In this document: positions 1,971 through 28,766 of the stretch, in pieces
How positions within the stretch are numbered: position 1 is the stretch's first letter
Layout of the letters: each line of letters starts with the position of its first letter
Source of the DNA: a virus
Lineage: Duplodnaviria > Heunggongvirae > Uroviricota > Caudoviricetes
Length of the DNA stretch: 29,440 nt
Strand: one strand, 5' to 3'
IMG/VR virus record: IMGVR_UViG_3300045988_117814
Span: 1-29,440 of that record
Translations under genes and position numbers: made by a program
Notes under the pieces: model-generated
What the model was told of the DNA's origin: nothing
The model's database searches: none
Seen by the model: only the letters and a program-made list of their open reading frames with translations

Positions 1971-2044
1971 ATACTGCCGCCAACTATGGCGGCTTTATTT
2001 TGCATGGTACTATTACCACAACGGTAACTATTACCACGGTGGTT

Positions 2045-2641
2045 ATGATGCCTGCTGAACCTAAAACCTATAAACGCAAATCAACGCAATTTAAGCCGCT
2101 CACAGCAATGCAGGAGGCTTATTGCCAGTCATACATCAAAACGCCTGAAAACCAGACTCAGGCAGCGATTAACGCAGGATTCTCCCCAAATACAGCGGCA
2201 GTTAAAGCCAGTGTCATGATGCGCGATGAACGCATTCAAAAACGGATTGCTGAGTTGATGGAGGAGCGCAACAAACGAATGCGCGTCAGTGCTGATTACG
2301 TTCTCATGCGCCTGGTGGAGATCGACCAGATGGACGTGCTCGACATCCTCAACGACGATGGGAGCCTTAAGCCAATACGCGAGTGGCCGAAAATCTGGCG
2401 CACTACGCTTAGCGGCTTTGATCTGTCATCGACCATCATGAACATGAACGAGGATTCGATAGAGACAATCCTCAAAAAAATTAAATGGCCTGACAAGGTG
2501 AAGAACCTTGAGCTGATTGGTAAGCATGTTGATGTCAACGCGTTCAAAGAACGTCTGGATGTTAATGTGAATGTGACAATTGCTGATCGCATAGCAGCAG
2601 CCAGGAAGCGACTCAAAGAACGTCAGGATGGTAATCAGTGA
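2045..2641 (+). CDS. Terminase small subunit
   Basis: Sits immediately upstream of and overlapping the large terminase gene; helix-rich, basic N-terminal region. The ORF-track start at 1967 is TTG and translates an implausible TTTVTITTV stretch; the first ATGs are at 2045/2048. Confidence 0.7.
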   Translation: MMPAEPKTYKRKSTQFKPLTAMQEAYCQSYIKTPENQTQAAINAGFSPNTAAVKASVMMRDERIQKRIAELMEERNKRMRVSADYVLMRLVEIDQMDVLDILNDDGSLKPIREWPKIWRTTLSGFDLSSTIMNMNEDSIETILKKIKWPDKVKNLELIGKHVDVNAFKERLDVNVNVTIADRIAAARKRLKERQDGNQ

Positions 2642-4113
2642 CAGATGCATCGTTATCTCCTGAAGAGCAGTTAATCGAAGATATTGCAGGGTTCACTCAC
2701 GATCCTCTTGGCTATGCCCTCTATGCGTTCCCTTGGGGGGAAGAGGGGACTGAACTGGCACATGCTATCGGTCCACGTCAGTGGCAGGCCGATGCGTTCC
2801 GAGAGATACGTGATCACCTGCAGAATCCAGAGACGCGTTATCAGCCGCTTATGCTGGCACGTGCTTCTGGTCACGGTATTGGTAAATCCGCATTCATCTC
2901 AATGCTCATCAACTGGGGCATGTCCACTTGCGAGGATTGTAAGGTCGTGGTGACCGCCAACACCGACAACCAGCTACGAACGAAGACCTGGCCGGAAATT
3001 ATCAAGTGGTCGAACCTTGCTATCACGAAAGACTGGTTTACCTGTACCGCTACCGCGATGTACAGCAATGACCCTGGGCACGACAAGCGGTGGCGGGCTG
3101 ACGCAATACCCTGGTCTGAGCACAACACTGAGGCATTCGCCGGACTACACAACGAGCGCAAACGCATCATCGTGGTATTCGATGAAGCGTCGAACATTGC
3201 GGATCTGGTGTGGGAAGTTGCTGAGGGTGCGCTTACGGACGAAGACACTGAGATTATCTGGGTGGCGTTCGGAAACCCTACACGTAACACCGGGCGTTTT
3301 CGCGAATGTTTCCGCAAATATAAACACCGCTGGAAAACTGCGCAGATTGACAGCCGGACGGTGGAAGGTACTAACAAACAGCAGTTGCAGAAATGGGTTG
3401 ATGACTACGGGGAAGACAGCGACTTCGTTAAAATCCGTGTGCGCGGCATATTCCCGGATGCATCTGAATTGCAGTTTATCCCTACCGGCCTTACTGACGA
3501 GGCAATGAAACGGGTGGTAACCGCTGCGCAGGTTGCACATGCTCCGGTGATAATCGGCGTTGACCCGGCATACTCCGGCGTTGATGACGCTGTGATATAC
3601 CTGCGGCAGGGGCTGCACAGTAAGGTGCTATGGACTGGTAACAAGACCACCGACGATCTGATTATGGCGAAGCGTATCGCTGACTTTGAAGACCAGTATC
3701 AGGCTGACGCGGTGTTCATCGACTTCGGTTATGGAACCGGTTTGAAGTCAATCGGTGATGGCTGGGGACGTACATGGCAACTTGTTCCGTTCGGCGGTGC
3801 GTCCACTGACCCGCAGATGCTTAACAAGCGTGGGGAGATGTTCAACTCATGTAAGACATGGCTGAGGCTGGGCGGCATGCTGGATGACCAGGAAACTGCA
3901 GACGACCTGTCGGCGGCAGAGTACAAAGTTCGTGTGGACGGTAAAATCGTTATCGAACCGAAGGAAGATATCAAAGAGCGTCTTGGGCGTTCTCCTGGTA
4001 AAGGCGATGCGCTACTGCTGACGTTTGCTTTCCCGGTCTCGAAACGCATAAATATACCAGGACAGCAAAGCCAGCAGGGAAGGGCCATAACGGATTATGA
4101 CCCTTATGCTTAA
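2638..4113 (+). CDS. Terminase large subunit
   Basis: 491 aa; Walker-A-like GHGIGKS; typical size and position upstream of the portal; GTG start overlapping the terS stop (GTGA). Confidence 0.85.
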   Translation: MTDASLSPEEQLIEDIAGFTHDPLGYALYAFPWGEEGTELAHAIGPRQWQADAFREIRDHLQNPETRYQPLMLARASGHGIGKSAFISMLINWGMSTCEDCKVVVTANTDNQLRTKTWPEIIKWSNLAITKDWFTCTATAMYSNDPGHDKRWRADAIPWSEHNTEAFAGLHNERKRIIVVFDEASNIADLVWEVAEGALTDEDTEIIWVAFGNPTRNTGRFRECFRKYKHRWKTAQIDSRTVEGTNKQQLQKWVDDYGEDSDFVKIRVRGIFPDASELQFIPTGLTDEAMKRVVTAAQVAHAPVIIGVDPAYSGVDDAVIYLRQGLHSKVLWTGNKTTDDLIMAKRIADFEDQYQADAVFIDFGYGTGLKSIGDGWGRTWQLVPFGGASTDPQMLNKRGEMFNSCKTWLRLGGMLDDQETADDLSAAEYKVRVDGKIVIEPKEDIKERLGRSPGKGDALLLTFAFPVSKRINIPGQQSQQGRAITDYDPYA

Positions 4114-4152
4114 TCCGCTGGTGGGGATAATGTCGTTGATATCTTCTGGTGA

Positions 4153-4183
4153 GGATAAAACAAAGCCAGCTCATAGGCTGGCT
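4153..4183 (-). terminator. Rho-independent terminator for the minus-strand moron transcript
   Basis: Hairpin AGCCAGC-tcatag-GCTGGCT (4164-4183); read on the - strand it is followed by TTGTTTTATCC, directly downstream of the stop at 4204-4206. Confidence 0.6.
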
Positions 4184-4203
4184 GTTTGTGACATGCCACG
4201 GTG

Positions 4204-4575
4204 TTATTGCTCGCTTAACTTCTGCTTCAGCAAGTAACCTTCGAGCATCCAGATTTTGTTTACAGCATTCTGCCGGGCAATCTTCCGACCAATTTCTGCA
4301 TCAAAATTTTCCGGACTTGCACAGGAACTCTCTCCGGTGACGGTGAAGCCGTTGCGCAGCACCAGGACGCAGAACGTCAGCAGAGAAAGTGATTCGTGCG
4401 GCTGGTAGTTTACCTCTCCGCCAGTATGTTTCGCTTTTATGGCTTTGCCAAAGGCACCATCTTCTGCTGTGAAATATGCCTCCTGAGCAATAATGCCTTC
4501 GATATGGTCTGGCGTAACGCGCGGTGCCGTTTTGCCTTTCTCAACGATTTCTTTTTCGATTTGCTGGTCGTTCAT
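4204..4575 (-). CDS. Hypothetical moron protein of unknown function, 123 aa
   Basis: ATG at 4575 with SD (AAGGTGAGATT-ATG on the - strand); opposite orientation to the surrounding late genes; own terminator; shares its strand with the upstream tRNA. Confidence 0.7.
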   Translation of the reverse strand: MNDQQIEKEIVEKGKTAPRVTPDHIEGIIAQEAYFTAEDGAFGKAIKAKHTGGEVNYQPHESLSLLTFCVLVLRNGFTVTGESSCASPENFDAEIGRKIARQNAVNKIWMLEGYLLKQKLSEQ

Positions 4576-4773
4576 AATCTCACCTTAAAAAAATGCCCTG
4601 CGAACCGGGCGAACTGGAAGCAATGAGTTATGCCTTCCGTGGCTGTACTGATTTACAGCATGAAGTCATCGCAATGGCGTCCTGCTGTAAAAAGAGCGGT
4701 GATAGTCCTTCAAGGGAAACCATCACCGCCAAGCCCCTGGAACTTCTGGCATCACGGTCCTTAGGCGTGATTC

Positions 4774-4850
4774 TGGCGTGGTATGCAGGATTCGAACCTG
4801 CGACCAACCGCTTAGAAGGCGGTTGCTCTGTCCAACTGAGCTAATACCAC
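4774..4850 (-). tRNA. tRNA-Arg (anticodon TCT / UCU, reads AGA)
   Basis: Reverse complement folds by hand into a canonical cloverleaf: 7-bp acceptor stem GTGGTAT/ATACCAC, D-arm GCTC/GAGC, anticodon stem ACCGC/GCGGT with loop CTTCTAA, T-arm GCAGG-TTCGAAT-CCTGC, discriminator G and encoded CCA. Confidence 0.9.
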
Positions 4851-5277
4851 AACGCTGAGAGCACTTAGCCTGTTAAGGCGCCACACTTTGTCGCGGCTCC
4901 ATAAATGCTCTCATCGTTGTACCCTCGTCTCTTCCGAGGCGTCACACCGAATCGCCGGGATGGTGAATCCCCGTGCGCGGAATAAAACCGCTCGACTTGC
5001 ACATTCCGGCTACCTGGTTCGTTTGCTCGAGCAAGGGAGGGTGCCCCTTAAACGTATCCAGACCGCTATCGGCGCATGTGCCATACGCCGTACTGCTCAA
5101 AATAAAAGCTCACTCCACCTGTTCAATTTAACGACAAGCCAGTCAGGTTAATAACCGGAATGAACTCTTTGCTTACCTGAAAGGTAATAATTCGTGCGTT
5201 AAATGTCAACTATCTACGATAAATAAATCATATGTGGTTAAATTGGTAATAATTTAATTGCGTACGGAGTCATTGAT

Positions 5278-5484
5278 ATGTGCATGGGTAGCTCACCATC
5301 AGTGCCTGCAACACCAGAAGTTCAGGCAGCACCACAGGAGCAGGATGCCGCCGTTGTTGATGCCCGCGACGAAGAAACACGTCGCCGTCGCGCTGCTGCT
5401 GGTCGTAGTTCTACGCTGCTTACCGGTTCTCAGGGCGACACATCAACCGCTAATACCAGCGGTAAAACGCTGCTTGGTCAGTAA
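5278..5484 (+). CDS. Small virion-associated protein, T7 gp6.7-like
   Basis: ATG with SD GGAGT; N-terminus MC..., Ser/Thr/Ala-rich with a basic centre, placed immediately before the portal as gp6.7 is in T7-like phages. Confidence 0.5.
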   Translation: MCMGSSPSVPATPEVQAAPQEQDAAVVDARDEETRRRRAAAGRSSTLLTGSQGDTSTANTSGKTLLGQ

Positions 5485-5498
5485 CCGGAGTCATTGAA

Positions 5499-7178
5499 AT
5501 GGCGGAAACAACTAAAGAGCGATTGAACAAACAGTTCGCACAACTTGAAAGCGAGCGTCAGTCGTTCGAGCCGCACTGGCGCGAGTTGAGTGATTACATC
5601 AACCCGCGTGGTTCCCGCTTTCTGACTTCTGAGGTCAACCGTAACGATCGACGCAATACACGCATTATTGATTCGACCGGGACTATGGCGGCGCGCACTC
5701 TCGCCAGCGGCATGATGTCAGGCATCACAAGCCCCGCGCGTCCGTGGTTTCGCCTGGCTACGCCAGATCCTGAAATGATGGATTATGGCCCTGTTAAGTT
5801 GTGGCTTGAGGCGGTGCAGAACCGCATGAACGATATGTTCAATAAGTCGAATCTCTATCAGTCGCTGCCGCAGTTATACGGAAGCCTCGGCACATACAGC
5901 ACCGGTGCAATGGCGGTACTGGAGGATGACGAGGACATCATTCGCACAATGTCATTCCCGATAGGCAGTTACTACCTGGCTAACTCACCTCGTGGCAGTG
6001 TGGACACCTGTTTTCGCAAGTTCTCTATGACTGTTCGTCAGCTTGTTCAGGAGTTCGGGCTAAATAACGTCAGCGAATCCGTAAAAAGCATGTGGGAAAG
6101 CGGCACCTACGAGAAGTGGATTGAAGTGATGCATTCGGTTTACCCGAATATTGACCGCGACACATCGAAGCTGGATAGCAAGAACAAGCCATTCAAATCG
6201 GTTTATTACGAGGTTGGTGGCGATAACGACAAGTTGTTGCGTGAGTCCGGATTCGATGAGTTTCCAATTATGGCTCCGCGCTGGGAAGTTAACGGCGAAG
6301 ATGTTTATGGATCATCATGCCCGGGTATGCTGGCGCTTGGACCTGTTAAGGCATTGCAGCTTCTCCAGAAGCGCAAGTCGCAGTTGATTGATAAAGCCAC
6401 CAATCCGCCGATGGTTGCTCCGACTTCCCTCAAGAATCAGCGCGCCTCCCTTCTTCCTGGCGACATCACGTATATCGATCAGATTACTGGTCAGGATGGC
6501 TTCAGGCCTGCTTATCTGATTAACCCCAGTACAGCAGATTTGGTGGAAGACATTCAGGACACTCGTCAAATCATTAACAGCGCCTACTTTGTCGATCTGT
6601 TCATGATGTTGCAGAACATCAATACCCGCTCGATGCCTGTTGAAGCGGTGATCGAAATGAAAGAAGAAAAACTTCTGATGTTGGGGCCGGTTCTGGAGCG
6701 TCTGAACGACGAATGTCTTAATCCTCTCATTGACCGCGCTTTCTCGATGATGGTGCGTAAAAACATGCTGCCGCCACCGCCTGACGCGATGGAAGGCATG
6801 CCCCTGAAGGTCGAATACATTTCCGTCATGGCTCAGGCGCAGAAGTCTATCGGCCTGTCCAGTCTGGCGTCCACGGTTAACTTCATTGGTCAACTTGCGC
6901 AAGCGAAACCAGAAGCTCTCGACAAACTCAACGTTGATCAGGCGATCGATGCATTCGCTGATATGTCCGGAGTGTCTCCAACCGTCATTGTTCCGCAGGA
7001 ACAGGTTGAGCAGGCTCGCCAGCAACGGGCACAGCAACAACAGCAGCAACAAATGATGGCGATGGGGATGGCGGCGGCACAGGGGGCCAAGACGCTAAGC
7101 GAAGCTAAAACTTCGGATCCGAGTGTGTTGTCAGCTATGGCGAATGCAGTTAGTGGTCAGGGTGGGCTATCACAATGA
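5499..7178 (+). CDS. Portal (head-to-tail connector) protein, T7 gp8 family
   Basis: 559 aa; the C-terminal Q/A/M-rich tail (QQQQQQMMAMGMAAAQGA...) resembles the T7 gp8 C-terminus as I remember it; lies upstream of scaffold and capsid genes. Confidence 0.85.
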   Translation: MAETTKERLNKQFAQLESERQSFEPHWRELSDYINPRGSRFLTSEVNRNDRRNTRIIDSTGTMAARTLASGMMSGITSPARPWFRLATPDPEMMDYGPVKLWLEAVQNRMNDMFNKSNLYQSLPQLYGSLGTYSTGAMAVLEDDEDIIRTMSFPIGSYYLANSPRGSVDTCFRKFSMTVRQLVQEFGLNNVSESVKSMWESGTYEKWIEVMHSVYPNIDRDTSKLDSKNKPFKSVYYEVGGDNDKLLRESGFDEFPIMAPRWEVNGEDVYGSSCPGMLALGPVKALQLLQKRKSQLIDKATNPPMVAPTSLKNQRASLLPGDITYIDQITGQDGFRPAYLINPSTADLVEDIQDTRQIINSAYFVDLFMMLQNINTRSMPVEAVIEMKEEKLLMLGPVLERLNDECLNPLIDRAFSMMVRKNMLPPPPDAMEGMPLKVEYISVMAQAQKSIGLSSLASTVNFIGQLAQAKPEALDKLNVDQAIDAFADMSGVSPTVIVPQEQVEQARQQRAQQQQQQQMMAMGMAAAQGAKTLSEAKTSDPSVLSAMANAVSGQGGLSQ

Positions 7179-7471
7179 CAGATTATGAAGACGATCAACT
7201 GAAAGAAGAAAACGCCCGTAAGCAACGTGACATGGCACAGCGTGAAATTGATGACATTCGCTTTGTCATGAGCAGTGAACAGGGGCGTCGCGTTGTCTGG
7301 TCTGTGCTGGAGAAAGGCCGTGTGTTTTCCGCTATCTCACCAATGGACGCTATGGCAATGGCATTTAATGAGGGGCAACGCAATCAGGCGCTGGAACTGT
7401 TTCAGCGCGTTATGGCGCATTGCCCTGAACAGTATTTGAAGATGGCCAAAGAGGCCAGTGAACAGGAGTGA
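7175..7471 (+). CDS. Hypothetical protein between portal and scaffold
   Basis: ATG overlapping the portal stop (ATGA); 98 aa, acidic and helical. Confidence 0.55.
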   Translation: MTDYEDDQLKEENARKQRDMAQREIDDIRFVMSSEQGRRVVWSVLEKGRVFSAISPMDAMAMAFNEGQRNQALELFQRVMAHCPEQYLKMAKEASEQE

Positions 7472-7473
7472 TC

Positions 7474-8169
7474 ATGAATTTATTTGAGCGTTTGCTGTAT
7501 CGCCGTCTTTGCAATGAGCAACCAGTCGATGGTGGAGCAGCTCCGGCTGCGTCAGAGCCGTCAGCGCCTGCAGGTGATAACCCTGCTCCAGTTGGTGATC
7601 CATCACAACAGGAAGGTGATAAGACACAACCTGTTGCTGATGGCGATAAACCTGCTGATGACAAAAAGCCTGAAAGCGATAAGCAGGGTGAAAAAAAGGA
7701 CGGCGATAAACCGGAGGGTGCGCCGGAGAAGTACGAGTTTCAGGCTGCCGAAGGCGTAGAGCTGGATACAGAAGCGTTGAAGGAATTCGAGCCGGTGGCG
7801 CGAGAACTTAACCTGACCAACGAGCAAGCGCAAAAGCTGGTTGATGCTTATCCGAAGATTCTGGCAGGTGTGCAGCAGCGTCAGGCAGAAGCCTGGCAGA
7901 AAACGACCGAGCAGTGGGCTGCTGATGTAAAAGCTGACAAAGAAATCGGTGGCGACAAGTTGATTTCTAACCTTAGCGCCGCACAGCGTGCGCTTGACCA
8001 GTTCGGGACACCCGAGCTCAAAGAATATCTGAACACCACCGGACTGGGTAATCACCCTGATCTGGTCAAAACGTTCGTGAAAATCGGAAAGGCGATGTCT
8101 GAAGATGGCATGGTCACCGGTGGTAATGAAGGCCAGCGTAGTGCGGCCGAAGTGCTCTATGGCAAATAA
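7474..8169 (+). CDS. Scaffolding protein
   Basis: Acidic, Pro/Ala/Asp/Lys-rich low-complexity N-terminal half and helical C-terminal half; immediately precedes the major capsid gene. ATG at 7474 sits behind AGGAG; 7468 is an alternative GTG start. Confidence 0.7.
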   Translation: MNLFERLLYRRLCNEQPVDGGAAPAASEPSAPAGDNPAPVGDPSQQEGDKTQPVADGDKPADDKKPESDKQGEKKDGDKPEGAPEKYEFQAAEGVELDTEALKEFEPVARELNLTNEQAQKLVDAYPKILAGVQQRQAEAWQKTTEQWAADVKADKEIGGDKLISNLSAAQRALDQFGTPELKEYLNTTGLGNHPDLVKTFVKIGKAMSEDGMVTGGNEGQRSAAEVLYGK

Positions 8170-18781: not shown

Positions 18782-21256
18782 ATGAGACAGGAATGTATAC
18801 AAGCGGTTCAGCAGGCGGCGCAGCGCACGTTAACGGCGCGAGAAATACAGAACATTGAAGACCGCATTTATCGAAATATGCGCTCCATTGCTCGTGATGA
18901 CCCGATGTCGTGGAGACAACTTTCCGAATCAGAGCGGCTATATCGAGCAGCACAATTGGCATCTGAAGAATTACAGCGAGAAGCGGCATTAAAGAAACGT
19001 CGTGTGGCTCTCACTATAGCCGCGCGTCAGAGATTGGATAAGTTTATCAATAGCTATCAAGGGGCTGATGGGAAACTTGGCGCTCTTAACCGTACTATTG
19101 CTTTTAATGCAGACGGTAAATCGAACTTCCTCTCTGTTGAGTCCAGAACAAAAGCCACTCGTGATTATGCATTGAGTCAATTGCAGGAGGCATTTGAAGC
19201 AGTAGATCCTCGCTTTTTTGGCCTGTTTGAAGATGAAGCGGGCGTGCGTGATCTGGTATATGAAATGCGAGGGCAAAATACTGGCAATTCTAAAGCAAGA
19301 AAAGGTGCTAAGGCGTGGAGAGAAGTGACAGAGCTACTGCGACGCCGGTTTAATGATGCTGGTGGGGACATTGGCTATCTCGAAAACTGGGGGATCCCTC
19401 AACATCATTCTATGGAAAAGGTTGGGGCGGTATCAAAGGATAAGTGGGTTAGCGATGTTATAGGTAAGCTGGATCGCAAATATTATATCCGAGCCGATGG
19501 ACAACTGATGAACGATGCCGAGTTGTCTGCATTTCTTGGAGAGGCTTATAACACGATCGCTACTGGTGGGCTGAATAAGCTTACTGATACCGGAATGCGA
19601 ATTTCCGGCTCACGTGCTAACCGTGGTAATGCATCACGACAGATACATTTCAAAGATGCAGATTCCTATCTGCAATATCAGCAACTTTATGGCGATCGCT
19701 CTCTATGGGAAATCATGGTCGGTCACTTGGAAGGTATCAGTAAAGATATTGCACTGGTGGAAACATATGGTCCAAACCCCGATCATGTTTTCCGCTCCCT
19801 TCTTGATCAGGTTAAGGCAGAAACGGCAACAGCTAACCCGAGTAAAACCGGTAGCGTCGAGCGTCTGGCGAACAAAACAGAGAACCTGTACAACTTTATT
19901 TCCGGAAAAACACAGCCTGTAGCGAATCCGCACATCGCGCGATGGTCTGACAATATCCGCAACTGGCTGGTTGCCAGCAGGCTCGGATCCGCGTTGCTGT
20001 CATCGTTCTCTGATCTTGGAACCATGTATCTGTCTGCGAAGGTTACCAACCTTCCAATGAACCAGTTATTCCGCAACCAGCTTGAAGCTATGGACCCAAC
20101 GAACCGTACAGAACTTGCGCGGGCGCGCCGCGCTGGTCTGGCGATGGAATCTCTACTTGGCAGCGTTAACCGCTGGGCGATGGATAATATGGGGCCGTCT
20201 GTGTCTCGTTGGGCGGCAACGGCGGTAATGCGTGCCAGTGGGCTTACAGCATGGTCAGATGCGCACAAGCGCGCCTATGGCGTAACCATGATGGGAAGCC
20301 TGGGAGAAGTAGTGTCACGGACACCAGACCTTCGTAGCCTCGATGACTCTGATTTTCGTATCCTGAAAAGCAAAGGGATTACTGACACAGACTGGAGCGT
20401 GTGGAAACTGGCGCAACAGGAGGACTGGGGGAACGGTAATAATACGATGCTGACACCGGAAAGCATTATGCGTATCCCTGATTCAGCAGTTAAACATCTT
20501 GGTGAGCCTGAACGCGTGAAATTTGAGGCAATGCGTAAACTGCTCGGTGCCGTAACTGAAGAAGTTGATATGGCTGTTATTACACCTGGCGCACGTGAGC
20601 AACTGATAACCGGTTCTGGTATTCAGCGTGGGACATGGAAAGGTGAATTAACGAGAAGTGTTTTCCTGTTTAAATCGTTCCCTATCTCGGTGGTTATGCG
20701 TCACTGGTCACGCGCTATGGGTATGCCGTCTGCTGGTGGGCGTGCGGCATATATTGCGACGTTTATTGCCAGTACGACCATTCTTGGCGCTTTGTCGCAG
20801 CAACTTAACGACCTTGCGTCTGGTCGTAATCCTCGCGAGATGACAGGAGAAGATGCTGCTAAATTTTGGCTTGGTGCTCTACTGAAAGGTGGTGGTCTTG
20901 GCCTTTACGGTGACTTTTTATTGTCAGATCACACTAGGTACGGAAGCGGCGCGCTGGCGTCGATGCTTGGCCCGGTAGCTGGTCTGGTTGATGACGTAGT
21001 GAAGATTGCTCAGGGCATACCGTTAAATGCTGTGGAAGGGAAGAATGAGCAGACTGGTGGTGATCTGGTTAAGCTGGGGAAAGGTCTGATGCCAGGTGCG
21101 AATCTCTGGTACTTAAAGGCGGCTCTCGATCACATGATCTTTAACCAGATGCAGGAGTATTTTTCACCAGGTTATTTGCGTAAAATGGAGCAACGTTCGA
21201 AGAAAGAGTTTAACCAGACATACTGGTGGCGACCTCAGGATGTCACTCCGCAATAA
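18782..21256 (+). CDS. Large internal virion / ejection protein
   Basis: 824 aa; SD GAGAGG; last large gene of the same-strand late operon, which ends at the terminator at 21426-21450. Confidence 0.65.
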   Translation: MRQECIQAVQQAAQRTLTAREIQNIEDRIYRNMRSIARDDPMSWRQLSESERLYRAAQLASEELQREAALKKRRVALTIAARQRLDKFINSYQGADGKLGALNRTIAFNADGKSNFLSVESRTKATRDYALSQLQEAFEAVDPRFFGLFEDEAGVRDLVYEMRGQNTGNSKARKGAKAWREVTELLRRRFNDAGGDIGYLENWGIPQHHSMEKVGAVSKDKWVSDVIGKLDRKYYIRADGQLMNDAELSAFLGEAYNTIATGGLNKLTDTGMRISGSRANRGNASRQIHFKDADSYLQYQQLYGDRSLWEIMVGHLEGISKDIALVETYGPNPDHVFRSLLDQVKAETATANPSKTGSVERLANKTENLYNFISGKTQPVANPHIARWSDNIRNWLVASRLGSALLSSFSDLGTMYLSAKVTNLPMNQLFRNQLEAMDPTNRTELARARRAGLAMESLLGSVNRWAMDNMGPSVSRWAATAVMRASGLTAWSDAHKRAYGVTMMGSLGEVVSRTPDLRSLDDSDFRILKSKGITDTDWSVWKLAQQEDWGNGNNTMLTPESIMRIPDSAVKHLGEPERVKFEAMRKLLGAVTEEVDMAVITPGAREQLITGSGIQRGTWKGELTRSVFLFKSFPISVVMRHWSRAMGMPSAGGRAAYIATFIASTTILGALSQQLNDLASGRNPREMTGEDAAKFWLGALLKGGGLGLYGDFLLSDHTRYGSGALASMLGPVAGLVDDVVKIAQGIPLNAVEGKNEQTGGDLVKLGKGLMPGANLWYLKAALDHMIFNQMQEYFSPGYLRKMEQRSKKEFNQTYWWRPQDVTPQ

Positions 21257-21725: not shown

Positions 21726-21745
21726 AACTGTATATTTATACAGTA
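21726..21745. promoter_or_regulatory. LexA (SOS) box
   Basis: AACTGTATATTTATACAGTA: CTGT-N8-ACAG with an AT-rich spacer, 18 of 20 matches to the consensus TACTGTATATATATACAGTA. Confidence 0.7.
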
Positions 21746-21901
21746 TCAAATAATTTGTTTGCTATCCAGCACGTTTTGCAAATCACCTGAAAGGTAATAT
21801 CTGTTTGTATTCATGGTCTATCTATCTATATATGGTTTTTCGGGTAATAGAATAATCGGATATGCGGCGCAACGGGTGCTGCGACTATCTGGAGATTTAA
21901 C

Positions 21902-24379: not shown

Positions 24380-25381
24380 TTATTTTAGTTTTCTTAGAAT
24401 ATTTCTGCTTGGCTTTTCTACTAAATGAAATGTTAATATGGAAAACATCAGTGTAGATATAACCATAACAAACACATCATTTATATAACTAACATTTAAC
24501 CATTCAGTTATTGCATTCACTTCAAATATAAAATGCCTTTGTATCATCAGGTGCGTAAGGTAAATTGAAAAAGACAACTCCCCCAAATAATGAATAGGTT
24601 TTGTTGATAGTAACCATCCTGTTATTCCAGTGCTATAATAAAGCGATGATATATATAATCCGGTCAAAATAACAAAAACAATATCCATTCCTTTTGTTAG
24701 TAAACACGCTATTACTAAAGCCGCCAAAATATCTTGAGTATATGCAATAACATTAAATGTGTGTTTGTATTTATCAAATAAAACATAGCAACAACAACCT
24801 ATAGTGAAACCACAAACACCTCTCATTATTGAAGGGATTCCGCTATATATATCAAGTGGCCCGCTACTACCAGGGTTGTCAATTGTTGTAATATAAAACA
24901 ACATTGACATTGATGTGTAAATTATTATGAAACATAACCATTTCTTATCGGTTAATAAGAATATTAGAGGCGGAAATATTAAATACGCAATTAATTCAAC
25001 GCTAACAGACCATGATGCACCAACCATTCCATTATTAAATAAATTTTGCCACATCATAAAATTTATTATGAGATTTTGAGTTGATGGTGGCGATGATTGA
25101 TTTACTTGAATAATTATTGTTAATAATAAAACAAATAAATATAATGGATATATTCTTGAAAATCTATGCCAAATAAATTTTCCAAATTCACTAACAGATA
25201 TTTCTTGTGTGAAATTTTTAGAGTATACCATACACATTATAAATCCGCTTAATACGAAAAAAAGATCTACTGCTAGATATCCGTTCCATAGAAAAGGTAT
25301 TTTTGCGTTTGTAAAGTGATAAAGAACTACGTAAATTGCAGCTATTCCTCTAACACCTGTTAGTGATTTTATTTCTTTCAT
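24380..25381 (-). CDS. oac: Acyltransferase family 3 integral membrane protein; probable O-antigen O-acetyltransferase (lysogenic conversion)
   Basis: 333 aa, multi-pass membrane protein with hallmark motifs SLTGVRGIAAIYVVLYHF and VDLFFVLSGF; very AT-rich; convergent with the tailspike. Confidence 0.8.
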   Translation of the reverse strand: MKEIKSLTGVRGIAAIYVVLYHFTNAKIPFLWNGYLAVDLFFVLSGFIMCMVYSKNFTQEISVSEFGKFIWHRFSRIYPLYLFVLLLTIIIQVNQSSPPSTQNLIINFMMWQNLFNNGMVGASWSVSVELIAYLIFPPLIFLLTDKKWLCFIIIYTSMSMLFYITTIDNPGSSGPLDIYSGIPSIMRGVCGFTIGCCCYVLFDKYKHTFNVIAYTQDILAALVIACLLTKGMDIVFVILTGLYISSLYYSTGITGWLLSTKPIHYLGELSFSIYLTHLMIQRHFIFEVNAITEWLNVSYINDVFVMVISTLMFSILTFHLVEKPSRNILRKLK

Positions 25382-25616
25382 ATGTATTTATCTATATAAC
25401 AAATTAAAGTCAATGGATGCCAAACATCATATCATATTTGCAGCATTCTAGTCAGCACTTCACACATCATCCAACGGGGAGAGTCAAATGCTTTGCTGAT
25501 CTATTTCATTGAGATTAGTAGTGGACAAAGGTTTGCATCTGATTGCAAGGCGTTGTGCTATTAGCAGCGTATGCTTTTTAAGCGTTAAAATAAACCACCA
25601 CTAATCCATATAAGGT

Positions 25617-25630
25617 TCGCTGTGTATAAT
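25617..25630 (+). promoter_or_regulatory. Candidate extended -10 promoter for the lysis cassette
   Basis: TGTGTATAAT (TGn-TATAAT) about 20-35 nt upstream of the first lysis-cassette ORF. Confidence 0.35.
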
Positions 25631-27556: not shown

Positions 27557-27600
27557 CACTCAATTGGTTATGGTTGTCGTAAATAATTGAGTGGGAATGA
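27557..27600. other. Probable attR junction: inverted repeat overlapping a remnant of the guaA 3' end
   Basis: Inverted repeat CACTCAATT-N19-AATTGAGTG (27557-27593); ATT GAG TGG GAA TGA (27586-27600) encodes ...IEWE-stop but is preceded by an in-frame TAA. Confidence 0.4.
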
Positions 27601-27624
27601 TTTGACCCTGCACTATGAATGAAC

Positions 27625-27692: not shown

Positions 27693-28232
27693 TTAATTAA
27701 ACCAGCTGTCCGATTTGTTCTCTTCTGCTTTGCCCACGCTTTTCATCAGATCGCGACCGCCTTCAGTCATATTTCTGTTGGCGTCAGCTTCAGATTGCAC
27801 CACATCGGTTTGCGCAGCTTTGTGCTTCAGTTCCTGATCGATAAATTCGTTTTCTCGCTTAACGCGGGCTTCTTCTTTCGCCAGCGCCAGTTTTTGTTTC
27901 TGAATCTCTAAGCTGCGTAGCTCATCTTCATAACTTTGATCGCGTTTTTTGTCCGCAGAGGCTTCGGCGTCCAGTTTATCCTGACGAGCTTTCTTATTTG
28001 CCGCTGCCGTTGCCGCTCTTTTGTTAGCGGCGGCCTGGGCATTTGCGCGACGTTGCTTCTCTTGCTGGATTTCCCTGTTGCGCTCCGCGACCCATTCGTC
28101 ATGCTGCCTTTGCTCTTCATTTTTACCTTGCTGTTCCGCTTCTGCGACAGCAGAGAGTTGATCCTGCAATGATGAGGCGATAGCCGGATAGCTTAAGGAG
28201 GCTAAGATGGCGCAAAGAAAAACTTTCTTCAT
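27693..28232 (-). CDS. yfgI: Chromosomal secreted/periplasmic protein, YfgI-like
   Basis: 179 aa; signal peptide (MKKVFLCAILASLSYPAIA) then a charged coiled coil; size and neighbour order match the E. coli yfgG-yfgH-yfgI locus as I recall it. Confidence 0.65.
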   Translation of the reverse strand: MKKVFLCAILASLSYPAIASSLQDQLSAVAEAEQQGKNEEQRQHDEWVAERNREIQQEKQRRANAQAAANKRAATAAANKKARQDKLDAEASADKKRDQSYEDELRSLEIQKQKLALAKEEARVKRENEFIDQELKHKAAQTDVVQSEADANRNMTEGGRDLMKSVGKAEENKSDSWFN

Positions 28233-28247
28233 GACTCCTCCTGATTA

Positions 28248-28766
28248 TTAGCTCTTTTCAGGACATTTGGTATTTGGCTGAATACGCGTTTCGTTATACG
28301 TCGTGGTAATAACAACGGCTAAACCTGTCGTAAACTGGCACTCTTTACCCACCTGGGTAGAGGTATACACTTTGGTGCCTTCCTTATAGGTTAAAGAAAC
28401 ACCTTCCACTAAGGTTTTATCATTCACCATAGAACCCGCTGCCGCGCCTACAGCTCCGCCGCCAACTGCACCTGCCGTCGTTCCGGAATTGCTGCCAGAC
28501 CCGACGTTGTGGCCGATAACACCGCCAGCGACTGCGCCAATAAGCGCGCCGAAGGCTTGTGCGTTCCGTTTATTTTGGGAGTTGTCTACGGCAACTTTTG
28601 CGGGAAGAATGGAAATAATATTAACGGTTTTAGTTTCTTGTTTGGTATTCAGTTGATCGGTTTGATAAACATCGGCGGCATGATCGTCAGCATTTGACTG
28701 GCATCCTGCCAGAGTGAATGACGCTAACATTGCTACAGGCAGAAGACATTTTTTAAATTTCATCAC
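28248..28766 (-). CDS. yfgH: Outer-membrane lipoprotein with a glycine-zipper segment, YfgH-like
   Basis: 172 aa; lipobox LAGC; Gly-rich stretch GALIGAVAGGVIGHNVGSG...GAVGGGAVGAAAG. Confidence 0.7.
   Translation of the reverse strand: MMKFKKCLLPVAMLASFTLAGCQSNADDHAADVYQTDQLNTKQETKTVNIISILPAKVAVDNSQNKRNAQAFGALIGAVAGGVIGHNVGSGSNSGTTAGAVGGGAVGAAAGSMVNDKTLVEGVSLTYKEGTKVYTSTQVGKECQFTTGLAVVITTTYNETRIQPNTKCPEKS

Follow-up and report, generated by a model that had tools for sequence, protein, structure and literature searches.

Probable repressor operators ahead of the portal and tailspike genes of a phiV10/epsilon15-like prophage

Described repressor systems and the prophage studied here

The CI repressor of phage lambda acts from 17-bp operators (OL/OR) on both sides of the repressor gene, with long-range looping. 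The lambda late genes are under Q antitermination control and carry no CI operators, and CI is lost by RecA-stimulated self-cleavage, not through an antirepressor. For mycobacteriophage L5, Brown et al. 1997 reportedly described gp71 'stoperators', asymmetric, orientation-dependent 13-mers lying in transcribed regions and blocking elongation. The repressor-binding sites of Salmonella phage epsilon15 are reportedly to be credited to Kropinski et al. 2007, and ant is said, from the work of Kim & Ryu 2013, to be repressed by LexA. The related phage SPC32H is reported to have a Rep-Ant-LexA lytic switch (Kim & Ryu 2013; Kim et al. 2016), with the structures PDB 5D50/5D4Z. SPC32H Rep binds palindromic DNA as a tetramer, which Ant, likewise a tetramer, takes apart (PMC9638917; PMC9986798).

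The window, by which we mean the whole stretch of 29,440 nucleotides analysed here, is by its sequence the right-hand portion of a phiV10/epsilon15-like prophage of the genus Uetakevirus in its integrated state. Its positions 4000-8000 are 96.7% identical to Escherichia phage phiV10, whose family includes the Salmonella phages epsilon15 and SPC32H/SPN1S. Among complete E. coli genomes the best match is 96.8% identical. An att core, the sequence of which is shown for phiV10, epsilon15 and ZX5 (PMC9782041), marks the right end of the prophage (Table 1), so the rep gene lies to the left of the window, beyond its edge. Past the att core come host-like genes on the minus strand (27693-28766; DUF5384 and a glycine-zipper/TraT-like lipoprotein).

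The window carries the same 17-bp palindrome as epsilon15, at the same positions (terS, gp3/portal and tailspike) and the same distances from the start codons (98 and 112-114 nt), but its portal and tailspike copies each have one arm mismatch and share the spacer TGAAA. The likeness to SPC32H lies in the Ant protein, in a LexA box on the ant promoter, in the Rep homologue of the near-identical phiV10 and in the same palindromes at the same places; the difference is that phiV10-type Rep is only ~42% identical to SPC32H Rep.

With lambda the prophage family shares 17-bp operators grouped to either side of the repressor gene, operator pairs in helical phase (62 and 72-76 bp) and an oligomeric repressor able to bridge sites. 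It differs in its late-gene operators and its antirepressor-based inactivation, neither of which lambda has. As in L5, many repressor sites would be distributed over the genome, late regions included, and the repressor would silence the whole prophage directly. Unlike stoperators, the sites are symmetric palindromes heading transcription units, only the terS pair being in a leader or ribosome-binding-site position, and the repressor families are unrelated.

Table 1. Features of the window that bear on the palindromes; operators and promoters are putative
Feature	Position	Strand	Sequence or elements	Remarks
Zinc-ribbon protein, 113 aa	1399-1740			phrog_536 'transcriptional regulator'; CxxC...CxC tail
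Adjacent probable operator pair	2012-2028 + 2030-2046		ATTACCACAACGGTAAC + ATTACCACGGTGGTTAT	between a terminator-like hairpin (~1977-1999) and terS ATG 2048
terS	likely ATG 2048			two probable operators just ahead
gp49/Sf6-gp66-family ORF	4575-4204	-
tRNA-Arg(TCT)	4850-4774	-		Rfam match
Probable operator ahead of gp3-like ORF/portal	5172-5188		CTTACCTGAAAGGTAAT	1 mismatch; centre 98 nt before ATG 5278
Candidate leftward promoter	5209-5181	-	-35 TTGACA (perfect) 5209-5204; 17-nt spacer; -10 TACCTT 5186-5181	-10 inside operator
Late motif, gp3 copy	5229-5252	+	CATATGTGGTTAAATTGGTAATAA	candidate extended -10 TGn + TAATAA 5244-5252
gp3-like small ORF, 68 aa	ATG 5278	+		precedes portal
Portal gene	5499-7178			start 5499
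ant, small antirepressor, 85 aa	21449-21706	-		87% identical to SPC32H Ant
LexA (SOS) box	21726-21745		AACTGTATATTTATACAGTA	overlaps inferred ant promoter
Inferred ant promoter	21768-21740	-	-35 TGGATA 21768-21763; 17-nt spacer; -10 TACTGT 21745-21740
Probable operator in divergent ant-tailspike intergenic region	21782-21798		ATCACCTGAAAGGTAAT	1 mismatch; centre 112 nt before tailspike ATG
Late motif, tailspike copy	21827-21853	+	TATATATGGTTTTTCGGGTAATAGAAT	candidate -10 TAATAG 21845-21850 or TAGAAT 21848-21853
Tailspike gene	ATG 21902
Late motif, lysis copy	25607-25630	+	CATATAAGGTTCGCTGTGTATAAT	consensus TATAAT 25625-25630
att core	27586-27602	+	ATTGAGTGGGAATGATT	right end of integrated prophage

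A conserved family of 17-bp palindromes

The first-pass annotation had drawn attention to a repeated 15-mer, ACCTGAAAGGTAATA, ahead of two late units. Both copies are exact, at 5175-5189 and 21785-21799 on the plus strand, and stop 89 nt short of the gp3-like ORF's ATG and 103 nt short of that of tailspike, as had been described. It is the sole repeated 15-mer in the window. Since 30% of Markov-1 random windows of equal size hold at least one repeated 15-mer (mean 0.44), the exact repeat alone is not beyond chance. Each copy is, in fact, the core of a 17-bp palindrome of the form ATTACC-N5-GGTAAT, matched at 11 of its 12 specified bases: the gp3 copy has C for A at arm position 1, the tailspike copy C for T at arm position 3. 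The identity of the two 15-mers follows from their common spacer TGAAA; the homologous epsilon15 sites have the spacers TAAAA and TGTAA. Within one mismatch of the consensus, the window holds four sites, these two and the pair ahead of terS, against 0.07 expected, and it is therefore the palindrome family, not the 15-mer repeat, that exceeds chance.

The flanking words that had been read as shared elements fared less well. TTTGC does precede both copies, but in a different register (2 nt ahead, 5168-5172, versus 5 nt ahead, 21775-21779), while CTATCTA comes 20 nt after the first copy (5210-5216) and 18 nt after the second (21818-21824), much as stated. We rejected both as functional elements, because they vary across the five other genomes and among the close haplotypes described below. 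The common orientation of the copies is likewise correct as to strand and uninformative for a palindrome.

The complete relatives compared were epsilon15, phiV10, SPC32H, Tyrion and BUCT711. When all 5+5 palindromes are counted without bias, TTACC-N5-GGTAA comes out first in all five, with 11, 8, 10, 9 and 9 exact copies, respectively, against 3-4 for the runner-up palindrome. Near-consensus sites (at most one mismatch of 12 bases) number 8-12 per genome, where at most 0.14 are expected. They cluster around the repressor gene in all five complete relatives and in three divergent prophages, the window's own rep lying outside it. In phiV10, SPC32H, Tyrion and BUCT711 they flank rep on both sides and head the terS, gp3, tailspike, lysis and replication units. 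The motif had been presented as a mark of late units; its presence ahead of terS here, and its clustering in the complete relatives near the repressor gene as well as at early and replication operons, shows that it is not specific to them.

The epsilon15 GenBank record (AY150271.2) annotates sites of the form ATTACC-N5-GGTAAT as 'protein_bind: repressor (lysogeny)'. They stand before terS (12-27), gp3/portal (2931-2947) and tailspike (19895-19911), with three more beside the repressor gene and one before a RuvC-like gene in the replication region. The gp3 and tailspike operators of the window align positionally with 2931-2947 and 19895-19911. The epsilon15 sites may have been annotated from a bioinformatic prediction, and in the record of phiV10, the closest relative, the sites are unannotated. 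The operator finding is thus not new: what we describe are already known repressor operators, annotated at the homologous positions of epsilon15, rather than a new promoter or RNA element.

A motif search in related phages had been proposed as a check, and it found the operators at the corresponding positions with their arms kept. In six-genome alignments of both intergenic regions (portal identity down to 59%), the arms are invariant, the spacers vary and the distances to the start codons are fixed. From metagenomic viral contigs we collected 34 distinct gp3-upstream and 56 distinct tailspike-upstream haplotypes. Their arms are invariant, except for T/C at tailspike arm position 3, while spacers and flanks vary; at that position most haplotypes have the consensus ATTACC and the window carries the minority C. 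Arms and start-codon distances are also kept in Cronobacter and Serratia prophages. No distributed palindrome was found in Sodalis phiSG1 and Cobetia Carin1, more distant relatives by portal.

Two arrangements of single sites were also observed. Where operators abut a start codon, the right arm doubles as ribosome-binding site, as in GGTGGTTATgATG at terS and GAGGTAAAtcATG at phiV10 35131-35152 (operator 35131-35147). Downstream of ant, phiV10 has a 37-nt perfect palindrome (20486-20522; agtgcttata-TTTACCTTTGCGGTAAA-tataagcact) that embeds an operator-like core and is missing in the window.

Rep and the Ant/LexA module

Both copies are, very probably, operators for the CI-like prophage repressor Rep, a helix-turn-helix (HTH) protein of the SPC32H/epsilon15 gp38 family that would be encoded just left of the window. 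The earlier suggestion of a shared regulator site is in this respect supported: the 15-mer is the core of an over-represented, conserved palindrome. The likely binder is Rep, not the zinc-ribbon protein that had been put forward. phiV10 Rep (194 aa) matches the SPC32H Rep structure (PDB 5D50_A) with E = 4e-42, and the N-terminal HTH region of Rep, including NLVNRW, is invariant in five members of the genus.

A search over 5.8 billion proteins (E <= 1e-5) returned 151 Rep members, all from Enterobacterales. Among the 120 of these 151 matches that were listed, the putative recognition helix NL[VI][NS]RW is conserved, and the HTH region that contains it is nearly invariant. In the phage collection Rep homologues occur in Uetakevirus only, and all IMG/VR matches are 100% identical to phiV10 Rep. 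The most divergent members, from Cronobacter, Serratia and Enterobacter prophages, still have TTACC-N5-GGTAA as top palindrome, at the same places. This co-conservation of Rep and operators is consistent with binding of the sites by Rep; a Cro-like protein could be a co-user.

No switch of operator specificity was found among the Rep-family members examined, all of which use one half-site. Across six genera, Rep proteins only 42-45% identical to phiV10 Rep go with one operator half-site and a near-identical putative recognition helix. Immunity specificity is possibly set by the spacer and flanks, or by the Ant-binding C-terminal domain of Rep.

The near-identical phage ZX5 and phiV10 have identical repressors, and overexpression of the ZX5 repressor cuts holin and endolysin transcripts by >99.9% (PMC9782041). 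In a lysogen, tetrameric Rep would sit on the 17-bp palindromes that stand ahead of every lytic transcription unit: in the window terS, gp3/portal with the structural genes, and ant/tailspike, and in the relatives also the early-left, early-right, replication and lysis units. Late genes would then be silenced by Rep directly and not merely through the early-gene cascade. Against the repressor reading stand the distance of the operator centres from the inferred late starts and a lysis unit of the window that has no operator, both detailed in the next section.

The small Ant homologue encoded divergently from tailspike matches the 'Anti-repressor protein' of PDB 5D50 chain E with E = 4.6e-47. 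The LexA box next to it is single in the window, where 0 are expected, and is kept in the six-genome alignment of the tailspike region. With ant and tailspike facing away from each other and a LexA box over the ant promoter, this is a module of the SPC32H type. The ant promoter is putative: its hexamers were read from the sequence and from an invariant CTGGATAG. The tailspike operator lies 14 bp beyond its -35 element, with the operator centre ~57 bp ahead of the putative start of ant transcription.

On DNA damage, LexA would be inactivated at its SOS box, which lies 45-55 bp away from the tailspike operator; Ant, produced as a result, would take the Rep tetramer apart, and every operator would be vacated. 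Prophage induction thus probably runs from the SOS response through LexA to Ant, and not through RecA-stimulated cleavage of the repressor.

The inferred tailspike leader of the window holds a G+C-rich inverted repeat, GCGGCGCAACGGGTGCTGC, at 21860-21890. In its place, the leaders of epsilon15 and SPC32H have a different G+C-rich palindrome, TGCGCGCCGGGCGCA. The repeat may represent a conserved leader hairpin.

Late-promoter-like motif, operator spacing and rival readings

Downstream of the operators, by 38-50 bp, lies the true shared element of the late units, which the first-pass annotation had overlooked. The window has exactly three occurrences of the pattern CATAT-NN-GGTT-N5-(G/T)GTA(A/T)(A/T)A, where 0 are expected, all of them on the plus strand (5229-5251, 21827-21849 and 25607-25629). 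The copies directly precede gp3/portal, tailspike and the lysis cassette, and the motif is kept in all relatives. The gp3 copy is invariant in six genomes and is kept in the Cronobacter and Serratia prophages. A -35 element is absent from all three copies. We infer that they are late promoters, probably activator-dependent. Neither the motif nor late promoters of Uetakevirus are described in the literature that we searched. A sigma-54 reading of TGGTT-N5-GG was rejected by inspection, no GC element being found at the required spacing.

The gap between operator and late motif differs by unit: 50 bp at gp3, 38 bp at tailspike and, in the relatives, 41 bp at lysis. The operator centres fall ~80 bp (gp3) and ~68 bp (tailspike) upstream of the inferred late starts, so simple steric occlusion of the late promoters is unlikely. 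At lysis the window has the late motif without a Rep operator, whereas phiV10, epsilon15, SPC32H and Tyrion carry one 41 bp before the motif. The operator is lacking in the window because a different acyltransferase module lies upstream. This Acyl_transf_3 (O-antigen modification) module, at 24380-25381, supplies the DNA ahead of the lysis unit (25382-25606; compare phiV10 24653-24740).

Elsewhere, neighbouring operators are 62 bp apart, centre to centre, in 10 of 26 spacings (one of them 63), the others being 17-18 or 72-76 bp; the 62-bp pairs occur at OL and in the replication region. At gp3 a second GGTAAT (5245-5250), which overlaps the putative -10, follows the operator GGTAAT (5183-5188) by exactly 62 bp. 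This spacing is held in Cronobacter and Serratia, although the intervening sequence has diverged in Serratia. The recurrent distance suggests that one Rep tetramer may bridge two sites.

To repress the late promoters, Rep would have to act from a distance, perhaps with the other DNA-binding pair of its tetramer placed on the GGTAAT of the -10. A tentative and rather doubtful proposal is that late transcription in the genus starts from a hitherto undescribed, -35-less class of promoter in need of a phage activator, and that Rep silences it from 68-80 bp upstream by tetramer bridging, at gp3 to the GGTAAT half-site.

The gp3 operator may serve a further promoter. It overlaps the -10 of a likely leftward promoter, which may be a Rep-controlled promoter for tRNA-Arg(TCT) and the gp49/66-family ORF. 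TGTCAA (5204-5209), its -35 read on the plus strand, is invariant in the 34 haplotypes and in five of six genomes, while the 17-nt spacer varies. A consensus promoter scan made no call for this candidate.

Other readings of the palindrome were weighed against that of Rep operators. It could be the site of a late-gene activator, such as the zinc-ribbon regulator, and work on the late promoters as their upstream activating sequence. A position ~68-80 bp upstream of the inferred starts is typical of activators, the late motifs have no -35 element, and the 113-aa protein has both a regulator assignment in phrog_536 and a CxxC...CxC tail. The palindrome, however, also flanks the repressor gene and stands before terS and before early and replication units; how far it lies from the late motif changes with the unit, the lysis motif of the window has no palindrome upstream, and the epsilon15 record labels the sites as repressor sites. 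We consider an activator site improbable.

Less probable still is a reading of the palindrome not as a regulator site but as a piece of a shared sigma-70 promoter, the right arm holding a -10 of TAATAA/TAATAT. GGTAATAAT and GGTAATAT do hold -10-like hexamers, and the bases beside the right arm are invariant in the haplotypes. Yet the promoter scan calls nothing on the plus strand at either copy, there is no -35, and the DNA upstream of the palindrome is unconserved between genomes. The palindrome also abuts start codons (terS; phiV10 35131-35147) and forms tandem arrays beside rep. With a -35/-10 pair at 16-18 nt over the motif as the measure, none is found on the plus strand and only the weak candidate TTGACA-17-TACCTT on the minus strand. 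The promoter reading that had accompanied the 15-mer is thereby disfavoured, no sigma-70-like promoter being present at either copy.

An RNA or DNA hairpin (TTACC-loop-GGTAA), acting in processing, attenuation or termination in the leaders, had been offered as an alternative and is hardly credible. The inverted repeat is 5-6 bp long and minus-strand folds give z-scores of -2.6 and -1.5, but the plus-strand folds are weak (-4.2 and -2.0 kcal/mol; z = -1.2 and +0.3) and have no U-run. Over 86 family sites with highly diverse spacers, arm deviations break the pairing in 79 cases, leave G-T pairs in 11 and are compensated in 2. Rfam finds only the tRNA-Arg in the window, and nothing at the sites. 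Since it is the arm sequence and not the pairing that is conserved, and the folds are weak, the sites bear the signature of a dimeric DNA-binding protein and not of structured RNA. Lastly, that the 15-mer is a functionless coincidence, as its frequency in random windows would allow, is ruled out by the conservation data: the family is enriched >50-fold, its positions are kept across genera and its arms across 90 haplotypes.

Altogether, as repressor operators the sites involve no new principle; less ordinary are the late-promoter motif and the 62-bp phasing. The operators provide a simple motif for annotating phiV10-like prophages, a common kind in pathogenic E. coli. Bound by Rep, they would explain how the packaging, head and tail genes are silenced jointly and jointly released on SOS induction.
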